IMG/VR virus record: IMGVR_UViG_2563366935_000009
DNA from: a virus
Lineage: Duplodnaviria > Heunggongvirae > Uroviricota > Caudoviricetes
Reading direction: 5' to 3' (one strand)
DNA length: 5,809 nucleotides
The position numbers and the translations under genes were made by a program. The notes under the pieces are model-generated. The model saw nothing but the letters and a program-made list of their open reading frames with translations. It was not told where the DNA came from and searched no databases. Positions 559 to 5,342 of the stretch are shown here, piece by piece (position 1 is the stretch's first letter; each line of letters opens with the position of its first letter).

Positions 559-858
559 ATGACAGTAGTCATTACATATCTGGCTGACGATAACGCCAGA
601 AATCGCCGCAGAGCACGCAGACAGGCTCAACGTGAACAGGCGATGCAAGAACAGCGACTGGCGCGAAAAATTGCGCTAAAGCTCTCTGGTTGCGTCAGAG
701 CGGATAAAGCAGCATCACTCGGAATCCTTCGCTGCAAGAAGGCAGATGAAGTCGAGAGTAAACAGAATCGTATTTACTACCGCAAGCCACGCAGTGAAAT
801 GGGTGTGACTTGTGTTGGTCGCCAGAAAATGAAATTAGGCAGCAAACCACTTATTTGA
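559..858 (+). CDS. N: N-like transcription antitermination protein (99 aa)
   Basis: RBS GGAGG at 549-553, then ATG 559. There is an N-terminal arginine-rich motif (NARNRRRARRQAQREQ). The C-terminus RIYYRKPRSEMGVTCVGRQKMKLGSKPLI closely parallels the lambda N C-terminus as I recall it (RTWYSKPGERGITCSGRQKIKGKSIPLI). The track ORF 466..858 is an upstream extension with no RBS. Confidence 0.75.
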   Translation: MTVVITYLADDNARNRRRARRQAQREQAMQEQRLARKIALKLSGCVRADKAASLGILRCKKADEVESKQNRIYYRKPRSEMGVTCVGRQKMKLGSKPLI

Positions 859-866
859 GGTGATAT

Positions 867-1337
867 ATGACAAAATCATGGAGCGTACCTTTTCCTGAAT
901 CAGAAACTGAACATGATGGAATGCCTGTTTTCTGGAGATTCCAAGCGACAGTTGAAGAAGATGGAATCAAAATATTCGCACTTCAATATATAGCTTTTCA
1001 TCAGACAGAGCATTATGCATGGTTGGTTCCTGCGCATTGGATTGTTAATTTTAAACCAGCACCAAATCAGTGGTTACAGGAATGGAAACAAAGGAGAAAT
1101 AGATATGCAATTAAGAAAGTAGCAAAAAATGCAGAAAGATCTTTTGCATTCCCGACGAAGAAACTTGCCATTGAAAGTTTATTGCGCCGGAAGAAATACC
1201 ATTTGATGAGAATCAAACAAGATTTGGCTGTTGTATCAACTCTTGTTGATGGGATGAAGAATATTGATACATCAACACCAGGTATTGAATATAACTTTGG
1301 ACACAACCAAGAAACAGAAAACTGGGTGTTTTATTAG
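867..1337 (+). CDS. Hypothetical protein (156 aa), encoded in an AT-rich segment
   Basis: RBS GAGGTGA at 857-863, ATG 867, stop TAG 1335-1337. The region is markedly more AT-rich than its flanks. The C-terminal half is Lys/Arg-rich. I recognise no family. It occupies the slot between N and cIII that holds ral/sieB-type accessory genes in lambda. Confidence 0.65.
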   Translation: MTKSWSVPFPESETEHDGMPVFWRFQATVEEDGIKIFALQYIAFHQTEHYAWLVPAHWIVNFKPAPNQWLQEWKQRRNRYAIKKVAKNAERSFAFPTKKLAIESLLRRKKYHLMRIKQDLAVVSTLVDGMKNIDTSTPGIEYNFGHNQETENWVFY

Positions 1338-2970: not shown

Positions 2971-3267
2971 ATGCCAGCGCCTTTGTATGGTGCGGATGAC
3001 CCGCGCCGCTGTTCCGGCAATTCCGTATCGGAGGTGCTGGATAAATTCAGAAAAAACTACGATCGAATAATGTCTCTACCGCAGGAAACGAAAGAGGAAA
3101 AGGAATTTCGCCACTGTATATGGCTTGCAGAGAAAGAAGAACGCGAGCGAATTTACCAGACATCAATCCGACCATTCCGCAAAGCCACATATACCCACTT
3201 CCCTGAATATATCGACCCGCGCCTGCGTAATTACCGCTCACGCTATGGCGCTATCAGTAATGACTGA
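2971..3267 (+). CDS. Hypothetical basic protein (98 aa); positional candidate for an Abc2-like anti-RecBCD function
   Basis: RBS AAGGA at 2959-2963, ATG 2971. Directly downstream of the erf-ssb module, where P22 carries abc2. The product is proline-containing and basic. The family assignment is not verified. Confidence 0.55.
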   Translation: MPAPLYGADDPRRCSGNSVSEVLDKFRKNYDRIMSLPQETKEEKEFRHCIWLAEKEERERIYQTSIRPFRKATYTHFPEYIDPRLRNYRSRYGAISND

Positions 3268-3361
3268 GGAATTTACCATGAGAGGACTTGCTTAAGAGAA
3301 AGAGTTTCGGTTCTGTTAATGACAACAAATATCTGAATGCGATGTGGCGGAGTGGGAAGAA

Positions 3362-3880
3362 ATGAAACAAATGTCACTAATTGAGATGGATGGTTTTCTG
3401 AAAGGTAAATGCATCCCAAGTGATTTAAAGGTTAACGAAACAAACGCTGAATACCTTGTCCGTAAGTTCGGTGAACTTGAATCAAAACTGGAAACGGCGT
3501 TGCGGGAGTGTAGTTCTGCTGGAATCACGATTGATAACCTTGAGGCTAAATGCGCGAAGATGGCTGCTGAAAATACCTCACTTAAGCAATCTGAGAAGGA
3601 ATTTAATGACTTTTGTCGTGAGGAGTTTAGCGAATGGGAAGATGATGTTACTGAAACCCCAGCCACCGATGCTTTTCTGGCTGAAGTGCGGGCGCAGGGG
3701 GTGGATGCTGCTATAGAAGCTGCAAAAAATCTGGTGGCCCAAGAATATGAGTATAAGGATTTCAAAGCGGCGCAGAGTGATTGCTGTATGCACCCTGGTT
3801 CAGACCTGGTAGGGAAGGTTGAAATGACTGAGTGGTTAGTTGACTTTGCTGCCCAGCTTCGCAAAGGAGGCAACCAGTGA
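3362..3880 (+). CDS. Coiled-coil hypothetical protein (172 aa), Ea22-like by composition and position
   Basis: GGAG at 3349-3352, ATG 3362 (an in-frame GTG at 3344 is an alternative). The product is Glu/Ala/Lys-rich with heptad-like segments (LESKLETALREC, NLEAKCAKMAAENTSLKQSEKE). The stop overlaps the next start (GTGA). Confidence 0.6.
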   Translation: MKQMSLIEMDGFLKGKCIPSDLKVNETNAEYLVRKFGELESKLETALRECSSAGITIDNLEAKCAKMAAENTSLKQSEKEFNDFCREEFSEWEDDVTETPATDAFLAEVRAQGVDAAIEAAKNLVAQEYEYKDFKAAQSDCCMHPGSDLVGKVEMTEWLVDFAAQLRKGGNQ

Positions 3881-5034: not shown

Positions 5035-5311
5035 CCTGCAACTTGCCGTTAAAGGTGAATACTTCGATGCCATGATTCGCGGAGAGAAAACGGAAGAGTA
5101 TCGCCTGTGTAATGACTACTGGAATAAGCGAATTATGTTCCGCGAGTATGACCGCCTGATTATCACAAAGGGATATCCGAAGCGCGACGATTCCAGCCGC
5201 AGAATTGACGTCCCGTATGACGGATATGAAATCAAGACAATCACACATCCGCACTTCGGCGATAAACCGGTAAAGGTGTTCGCTATAAAGGTGAATATCG
5301 ACAATGAATGA
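5027..5311 (+). CDS. ASCH/PUA-like fold protein (94 aa), tentative (DUF3850-like)
   Basis: AAGGAGG at 5014-5020, then GTG 5027. The N-terminal pattern LQLAVKGEYFDAMIRGEKTEEYRL ... YDRLIITKGY resembles the beta-barrel signature of ASCH-type domains (from memory of HELKI.PEYFEAV.SGKKTFEIR ... GD.L.L). Confidence 0.5.
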   Translation: MANLQLAVKGEYFDAMIRGEKTEEYRLCNDYWNKRIMFREYDRLIITKGYPKRDDSSRRIDVPYDGYEIKTITHPHFGDKPVKVFAIKVNIDNE

Positions 5312-5315
5312 TAAT

Positions 5316-5342
5316 CCTCGCACTCGCGGGGATTTCTTTTAT
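5316..5342 (+). terminator. Rho-independent terminator, first of a tandem pair downstream of the ASCH-like gene
   Basis: CCTCGC (5316-5321), ACTC loop, GCGGGG (5326-5331), followed by ATTTCTTTTAT. Confidence 0.5.

Follow-up and report, generated by a model that had tools for sequence, protein, structure and literature searches.

We analysed a 5,809-nucleotide stretch of DNA (the window) from the IMG/VR virus record IMGVR_UViG_2563366935_000009 (Caudoviricetes), which is the early-left (pL) operon of a lambdoid, P22/CUS-3-like Escherichia coli phage, read on the + strand; over its full length it is closest to CUS-3 and phiv205-1. Our subject is an open reading frame (ORF) at positions 867–1337, annotated as hypothetical by every source, which we refer to as gp45 after its counterpart in phage HK97. 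The ORF encodes 156 amino acids, starts with an ATG at 867 and follows the gene for the antiterminator N (559–858) after a gap of 8 nucleotides, with a strong Shine–Dalgarno (SD) sequence, GAGGTGA, that contains the TGA stop codon of N (856–858). Downstream lie a conserved non-coding element, two terminator-like hairpins and a cIII-like ORF, all on the same strand.

The base composition of gp45 sets it apart from its surroundings. Its GC content of 36.7% (29.3% at third codon positions) makes it the most AT-rich stretch of the window: the 4,398 other 471-bp windows, none overlapping the ORF, have a mean of 46.1% (standard deviation 2.2, minimum 41.6%), and not one falls to that level. An earlier reading of this DNA from its letters alone (the sequence-only reading) had singled out an AT-rich gene of 156 codons here, and both the ORF and its composition are borne out. 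Low GC is in part a family trait and not solely a sign of recent import, because family members from many hosts are GC-poorer than their own ±3-kb flanks in 13 of 14 loci; the family as a whole is rich in Lys, Asn and Ile.

Conservation shows that the ORF is a genuine gene under strong purifying selection. The DNA is 98% identical to L0079 of phage 933W, the protein is 99.4% identical to L0079 and 98.7% identical to HK97 Gp45, and near-identical copies (98.7–99.4% at the amino-acid level) include vb_24B_11c of phi24B, orf57 of Stx2-86 and the versions in BP-4795 and H-19B. Eight synonymous changes and a single non-synonymous one separate the gene from its 933W copy (dN/dS 0.03); the value against HK97 is 0.05, and the overall range is 0.03–0.08. 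Of 5,426 complete E. coli genomes, 598 (about 11%) carry the gene, with up to four copies per genome. Full-length homologues at 55–84% identity occur in Cronobacter, Pectobacterium, Brenneria, Rosenbergiella, Symbiopectobacterium and a Salmonella phage, and the full-length family across Enterobacterales spans 55–99% identity with 40 invariant columns; truncated copies also exist.

The region after the gene (1330–1530) folds at −66.3 kcal/mol (z = −5.2), and none of 200 shuffled sequences is as stable. It contains the hairpin and two terminators that the sequence-only reading had described: a 14-bp hairpin with a 4-nucleotide loop and no U-run (1350–1381, from RNA folding), and two structures from the terminator scan, namely an intrinsic terminator (1442–1465) formed by GCCCTC-CAGTGT-GAGGGC (1442–1459) and T6, and a second terminator-like hairpin (1480–1499) with a T-rich tail, AACGCTTCACTCGAGGCGTT / AACGCTTCAYTCGAGGCGTTTTCG then TTCGTT (1480–1505). 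That reading had taken the terminators to be the gene's own, and here the comparison with other phages tells otherwise. The first two structures belong to a conserved element (1347–1470; 118–124 bp) that is found in 325 phage records at 90–100% identity, or 385 in distant mode, against approximately 80–87 records with the gp45 ORF, so that most records with the element are without the gene. Lambda, 21, 434, HK022, Sf6 and CUS-3 have the element without gp45; HK620 too has it. It is 97.6% identical to lambda 33920–34045, which lies between ral (34087–34287) and ea10 (33536–33904), and 98% identical to an Sf6 segment labelled 'bsq4; boundary sequence'. The Sf6 record labels the terminator within it 'homology to phage lambda; tL2A', and it is from this record that we take the identity of the 1442–1465 terminator as a homologue of lambda tL2a.

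The same terminator is annotated 'terminator' in HK97, HK106, HK75, HK620, 21 and 434, and the phage 21 element, likewise annotated as a terminator, follows ral. CUS-3, which shares N and the downstream genes with the window and lacks the gp45 ORF, keeps 1347–1465 at 97.5% identity, downstream of an unrelated 140-amino-acid gene. When the window is aligned with lambda, 21, CUS-3 and 933W, the element is near-invariant, and its few variable positions fall in hairpin loops; in substance it is the lambda tL2a element, with a T directly after the stem in place of the GA of lambda. The second terminator-like hairpin is, by its conservation, linked to the cIII module and not to gp45, because its conservation directly before cIII extends from E. 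coli phages to a Cronobacter prophage: window 1470–1555 matches the region upstream of cIII with 82.8% identity in 933W (6004–6083 in our locus L001) and 87% in the Cronobacter prophage (4505–4550 in L006). On this distribution, the terminators after gp45 are shared operon backbone. Family members in other genera are also followed directly by an intrinsic terminator, with terminator sequences that are unrelated, most probably because accessory cassettes are prone to settle directly before the boundaries of transcription units.

The hairpin at 1350–1381 is an observation in its own right. It is almost invariant in lambda, 21, 434, HK022, HK97, 933W, Sf6 and CUS-3, with one variable loop position, and it is missing downstream of the gene in other genera. 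By this comparison it is conserved far beyond the need of a mosaic-junction linker or a simple terminator, and it may be a site of RNA processing or stability, for example for RNase III. Rfam returned no family for the hairpin and terminator region.

The upstream signals point to expression together with N. A probable nutL, assigned from its position and shape, lies in the N leader at 474–502 (boxA-like GCTCTTT, then a boxB-like hairpin GCCCCTC-AGTTC-GAGGGGC). The N gene itself encodes 99 amino acids with a C-terminal half of the phage-21 type; it matches phrog_271 (E = 2.9e-36) and, below the cutoff, Pfam N_peptide (E = 0.0016). Its CUS-3 counterpart, the same gene, is annotated N, and window 657–869 is 96.7% identical to phage 21 N. 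The terminator scan found no terminator-like structure between nutL and 1442, and the tL2a homologue is the first terminator that the pL transcript meets within the window. A consensus scan of 1–2200 found no promoter-like site, and its sensitivity is limited as it missed pL too. On these scans, gp45 is without a promoter or terminator of its own. Because no terminator intervenes between nutL and 1442, the gap from N is only 8 nucleotides and the first terminator lies beyond the gene, gp45 would be expressed immediately early, as the sequence-only reading had soundly deduced: it would be transcribed from pL on an N-independent RNA that is shared with N and would end at the tL2a homologue. Its translation is probably coupled to that of N, because the N stop codon lies inside its SD sequence.

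This arrangement differs from that of lambda, which we take to have the terminator tL1 between N and ral; the window is without a terminator between N and gp45. It also bears on the suggestion in the sequence-only reading that the gene is moron-like. Morons, as reportedly described by Juhala and colleagues in 2000 for HK97 and HK022, are extra genes with their own promoter and terminator, expressed from the prophage. The deviating base composition of gp45 and its presence in some phages and absence from close relatives are moron-like. Unlike a moron, however, it has no promoter that we could find, is fused into the transcription and translation unit of N, and is followed by a terminator that is the shared tL2a. 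The moron-like reading, with tandem terminators that belong to the gene, fails: the scan found nothing promoter-like ahead of gp45, and its terminators are part of the conserved operon backbone. A strict moron identity was rejected on the same grounds, since the scan gave gp45 no promoter and the terminator element does not travel with the gene (325 records, mostly without it).

The sequence-only reading had placed the gene in the interval between N and cIII where lambda carries ral and sieB. This placement holds: gp45 lies between N and the tL2a homologue, and ral occupies that position in lambda, 21, Sf6 and CUS-3. The edges of the interval can be read from the breaks in homology. Against CUS-3, homology continues to the ATG at 867–869 and stops there; against 933W and HK97 it begins at 805, inside the 3′ end of N; and the right junction is sharp at 1347. 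A conserved linker at this mosaic junction, made up of the last 18 codons of N and the SD GAGGTGA (805–866, from sequence comparison), precedes the gene in most of the 80 IMG/VR loci with the E. coli variant of gp45 that we surveyed. In 64 of 77 loci, N ends within 200 nucleotides upstream (33 of the window/21 type, 27 of the 933W type, 3 of the lambda type and 1 of the phi296 type), and in 63 of 74 the element starts exactly 10 nucleotides past the stop codon of gp45. The next gene is ea10 in 25 loci, a window-type cIII in 12, a lambda-type cIII in 8 and something else in 16. Across the 80 loci, at least three N types and at least three downstream modules flank a constant core of gene and element, and on this evidence gp45 is a constant cassette within heavily reshuffled surroundings.

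In lambda the slot holds ral and presumably sieB, which the J02459 record that we used does not annotate; P22 supports this placement of sieB (PMC8022706). The corresponding contents are ral in phage 21; g36, ral and g34 in Sf6; an unannotated 28-codon ORF, ral and ECRS218_0047 (which has the size and position of Sf6 g34) in CUS-3; orf20 in VT2-Sakai; gp45 alone in HK97, 933W, phi24B and the window; and two small ORFs, ral and gp45 in phi296. These gene orders show, at the level of DNA comparison, that the N-to-tL2a/bsq4 interval of the lambdoid pL operon is a hypervariable accessory slot of interchangeable and stackable cassettes. Ral has been reported in both phi296 and phi367 (PMC12502783), and both phages carry gp45, with the two genes in tandem in phi296. 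We therefore rejected mutual exclusivity of ral and gp45: the two stand side by side in phi296 and in phi367, and gp45 accordingly does not serve as a functional replacement for ral. ECRS218_0047 was considered as a distant paralogue of the gp45 protein and rejected (hhalign probability 0.1).

The left junction retains a trace of past exchange. In 933W and HK97, N has a different C terminus and stops at the TGA in GGTGACT, and the 54-nucleotide N end persists as non-coding DNA (4939–5000 in L001, the 933W locus, with the SD included). By its sequence this is a remnant of a 21/lambda-type N and a fossil of recombination inside N, and it agrees with the mosaic exchange of the C-terminal 25–35 residues described for the P22-like gp24/N (PMC8022706). 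The genes of Pectobacterium and Brenneria are found at the opposite end of the operon, just before xis–int and far from N; in L008, a diverged metagenomic phage, a 71%-identical homologue once more starts 2 nucleotides after N and is followed by a terminator; and distant members lie at or near the start of early units.

The encoded protein has a mass of 18.6 kDa, an isoelectric point (pI) of 9.3 and a grand average of hydropathy of −0.57, and no transmembrane segment was found (maximum 19-residue Kyte–Doolittle value 0.56). Residues 61–130 are basic (17 Lys/Arg versus 5 Asp/Glu, pI 10.9), and the N-terminal 60 and last 26 residues are acidic. The Lys/Arg-rich stretch of the sequence-only reading is thus real, although it is central and not the C-terminal half that had been described. 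From its composition, the product is a soluble protein with a very basic centre. AlphaFold with 20 close homologues gave a predicted local distance difference test (pLDDT) score of 61, and that model was discarded; the addition of 17 distant members (37 sequences in all) raised the score to 91.7, with a predicted template-modelling (pTM) score of 0.79. The model predicts an α/β protein with a long three-stranded β-meander (19–30, 33–46 and 50–55), two short helices (56–61 and 66–74), a small β pair (strand 83–86), a 33-residue basic helix (98–130) and an ordered C-terminal tail; the predicted termini are ordered and acidic/aromatic.

Sequence and fold searches extend the family and leave it without a functional name. 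The PHROG 1636 profile matches over its full length (residues 1–156 of a 156-position profile, E = 1.1e-111). An exhaustive profile search retrieved 86 cluster representatives, mostly of 130–160 amino acids, that share a β region with the motif YYR..G..V....ET.C and a strand–helix with the motif K+I.K..SRFAF.TK..A...L..RK..Q..HLKRDL; two hits, P0066 (940 amino acids, seven repeats) and P0080, are low-complexity repeat proteins and were dropped as relatives. Of 40 divergent members, 40 match phrog_1636, 33 phrog_13631 and 17 phrog_25384. None of these three PHROGs has a functional annotation, and membership names the protein without explaining it. Pfam, NCBIfam, PADLOC and PHROGs, run on the protein and the 40 divergent members at permissive thresholds too, returned only unannotated PHROGs, in keeping with the sequence-only reading, which had recognized no family. 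Against the 5,027 models of PADLOC-DB v2, the protein gives just a 12-bit noise match to Cas1_II, and the 40 members give two unrelated single-member matches; a catalogued defence-system component was rejected, as there is no credible match. Sequence-profile searches of the Protein Data Bank (PDB) with close and broad alignments gave best E values of 0.13–0.66, which is noise, and Foldseek of the model against the PDB matched no solved fold (best E approximately 1). The same fold search in BFVD returned 12 matches at E < 1e-3 with TM-scores of up to 0.68, all uncharacterised, from temperate and virulent phages of diverse kinds, namely Erwinia phiEa2809, Sinorhizobium ort11, Rhizobium N38, Tenacibaculum and Cellulophaga phages, Achromobacter phiAxp-3 and Delftia RG-2014. 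No helix–turn–helix or other recognized DNA-binding fold was detected in the protein.

The residues that are invariant across the superfamily are T47, K87, R91, A94, A101, K109 and the penultimate F155, and no catalytic-looking set is conserved past the close family. The pattern looks like a binding surface rather than an active site. The family has relatives, by sequence or by fold, in non-lambdoid phages and phages of virulent type (such as Pantoea LIET2, Erwinia phiEa2809, the N4-like phiAxp-3 and RG-2014), which suggests that the family acts in lytic growth. In four of five independent distant temperate-phage contexts (L003/L004, L100, L102/L103 and L104, and not L101), orphan DNA methyltransferases lie within approximately 3 kb. 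These early operons contain orphan C5 and N6 methyltransferases (1922–2209 and 2988–3908 in L102/L103, 5710–7794 in L104, 7640–8569 in L100, and 790–1416 and 9494–10231 in L003; the coordinates include an Acb2/Tad1-type locus), and the early operon of one marine phage encodes an Acb2/Tad1-hairpin protein, of a family of anti-CBASS and anti-Thoeris sponges. A neighbourhood of ral in the slot, methyltransferases and a sponge leans weakly towards counter-defence.

Comparison with known systems narrows the kind of protein to be expected. With lambda Ral (PF11058), gp45 shares an address on the pL transcript between N and tL2a/bsq4 and the character of a small, soluble, dispensable, early accessory gene. 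It differs in length (156 versus 66 amino acids) and has no sequence similarity: the Pfam Ral profile PF11058 did not match the protein at E ≤ 1, whereas the positive control, CUS-3 ral, scored 4.3e-48. Ocr and ArdA are strongly acidic DNA mimics, with which gp45 shares the presumed immediate-early expression and a counter-defence-type accessory location; a mimic of this type was rejected given a pI of 9.3 for the whole protein and the excess of Lys/Arg in its core. A membrane protein of the SieB/Imm type was rejected because no transmembrane segment is present.

It is reasonably secure that gp45 is dispensable at the level of the lineage, that its product is soluble and basic and that the family reaches virulent-looking phages; it is likewise reasonably secure, from the operon layout, that the gene would be made at the very start of lytic development. 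Together, these features argue against a prophage exclusion protein and a core regulator and fit a host-directed accessory function. We tentatively favour, at rather less than even chances, an early host-directed factor, most probably of counter-defence, that would bind nucleic acid or a nucleic-acid-binding host protein. Such a protein would act in the first minutes of infection or induction, through binding and not catalysis, with the invariant basic patch (K87, R91, K109 and approximately 14 further Lys/Arg) engaging either nucleic acid or the surface with which a host protein binds nucleic acid, and it would complement ral without duplicating its role.

Several points weigh against this reading. 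Location is a weak guide, as the same operon holds recombination, cell-division and lysogeny genes, and the early regions of phages commonly hold methyltransferases and similar genes. Among themselves, the E. coli copies of gp45 are 98–100% identical and under purifying selection, and they show no sign of the rapid diversification that arms-race genes often undergo. A protein this basic cannot mimic DNA in the manner of Ocr or ArdA. Nucleic-acid binding is deduced from charge alone, and immediate-early transcription is a deduction from sequence in a window in which pL was not located.

The main rival, somewhat less probable in our view, is a host-takeover or regulatory protein outside immunity: an early basic nucleic-acid binder that modulates host or phage transcription, replication, the nucleoid or the lysis–lysogeny decision. 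The early timing and the basic core that we ascribe to gp45 would suit such a protein equally. Lambda, 21, CUS-3, Sf6 and VT2-Sakai, close relatives with the same N and downstream genes, are nonetheless without the gene, so that it behaves as an accessory function, which speaks against a core regulator, and no known DNA-binding fold was detected. A cofactor of N, with an effect on antitermination or on the stability or translation of N, would explain why N ends so close upstream in most E. coli loci (64 of 77) and in L008, why the N stop overlaps the SD, implying co-expression, and why the protein is basic and possibly RNA-binding. Yet the N genes with which gp45 is found are of at least four unrelated types, different in both their RNA-binding and their C-terminal regions, the Pectobacterium and Brenneria copies lie far from N, the non-lambdoid phages with a family member have no N, and many phages with the same N lack the gene; we regard such a cofactor as improbable.

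We give no better chance to a superinfection-exclusion or defence factor of the SieB or Rex kind, expressed from the prophage to protect the lysogen, which was among the candidates of the sequence-only reading. The slot in which lambda and P22 carry sieB, an AT-richness like that of many lysogenic-conversion genes, and the very common occurrence of gp45 in E. coli prophages all speak for it. However, gp45 should be silent in the lysogen, because it lies inside the repressor-controlled pL unit, 8 nucleotides from N and without a sigma-70-like promoter upstream. The absence of a transmembrane segment (a maximum 19-residue hydropathy of 0.56), the absence of a credible match among 5,027 PADLOC models and the relatives in phages that look virulent make an exclusion factor unlikely. 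That the ORF is no gene at all, being a chance frame in an AT-rich spacer or a decaying remnant, might be read from its sole annotation as hypothetical and from the truncated copies; we give this next to no weight, as it is already refuted by selection (dN/dS 0.03–0.08), by full-length conservation down to 55% identity across genera, by the 86 cluster representatives of the superfamily, and by a pLDDT of 91.7, a strong SD and a conserved N terminus.

If the favoured counter-defence reading is right, gp45 would enlarge the anti-immunity repertoire by a new fold, and possibly by a new target, and would bear on the spread of Shiga-toxin phages between E. coli strains. The broader proposal is possible though doubtful: that the gp45/L0079 family, with phrog_13631, phrog_25384 and the fold relatives in N4-like, Ackermannviridae-like and marine phages, forms a new structural class of immediate-early counter-defence proteins that block nucleic-acid-sensing or nucleic-acid-guided host immunity by direct binding. 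The gene is presumably among the first to be expressed in HK97, 933W, H-19B, phi24B and many other Shiga-toxin phages and is carried by 11% of complete E. coli genomes, yet it is still unnamed, belongs to no Pfam family and encodes a protein that resembles no solved structure, and a literature search under its known identifiers found no mention of it. The tL2a/bsq4 element was already known; gp45, a member of PHROG 1636, is an accessory cassette of the lambdoid early-left slot to which the unmatched fold, the wide phage spread and the carriage by Shiga-toxin phages add interest. The slot itself behaves as a plug-in site in which ral, sieB, g34, g36, orf20 and gp45 are swapped or stacked between two conserved linkers, and it gives a simple rule for harvesting more candidate host-interaction genes.

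Further small cassettes were seen in or near this slot. In CUS-3 (L010), the unannotated 28-codon ORF at approximately 1160–1246, MEEEFEEFEEHPQDVMEQYQDYPYDYDY, is extremely acidic and uses the same SD and ATG as gp45; its product could be a small acidic early peptide, perhaps DNA-mimic-like. Sf6 has its small 'gene 36' at the matching place. The unannotated cassette orf20 of VT2-Sakai, the main Stx2 phage of O157 Sakai, encodes 83 amino acids with no Pfam match (609–860 in L098) and is, by its position, another candidate host-interaction gene. In the Cronobacter prophage L006, an uncalled 88-amino-acid ORF (3252–3518) lies right after N and upstream of the family member, and has a C2H2/Di19-like zinc-binding motif (Pfam zf-Di19, E = 9e-4, below the cutoff).

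On the right side of the slot, the atypical 56-amino-acid ORF at 1532–1702 shares with cIII proteins an N-terminal AIAG, a C-terminal W..IL.Q.G.P, its position and the DNA upstream. It gave no match to Pfam Lambda_CIII (PF02061) and no significant BLASTP alignment to cIII, and we therefore call it cIII-like only, where the sequence-only reading had assigned cIII. A 12-residue insertion stands at the place of the conserved amphipathic helix of cIII, and where CUS-3 and HK97 have cIII and kil (approximately 270 nucleotides), the window has this single 171-nucleotide ORF and no recognizable kil. The sole Rfam match of the window, RsmY-like at 5204–5335 (19.7 bits, gathering score 57, E = 0.14), is almost certainly due to chance. 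Beyond the cIII-like ORF, the operon continues on the + strand with Erf (1959–2564), a gene like that for single-stranded DNA-binding protein (2564–2947), the anti-RecBCD gene Abc2 (2971–3267) and then several Ea-type genes.

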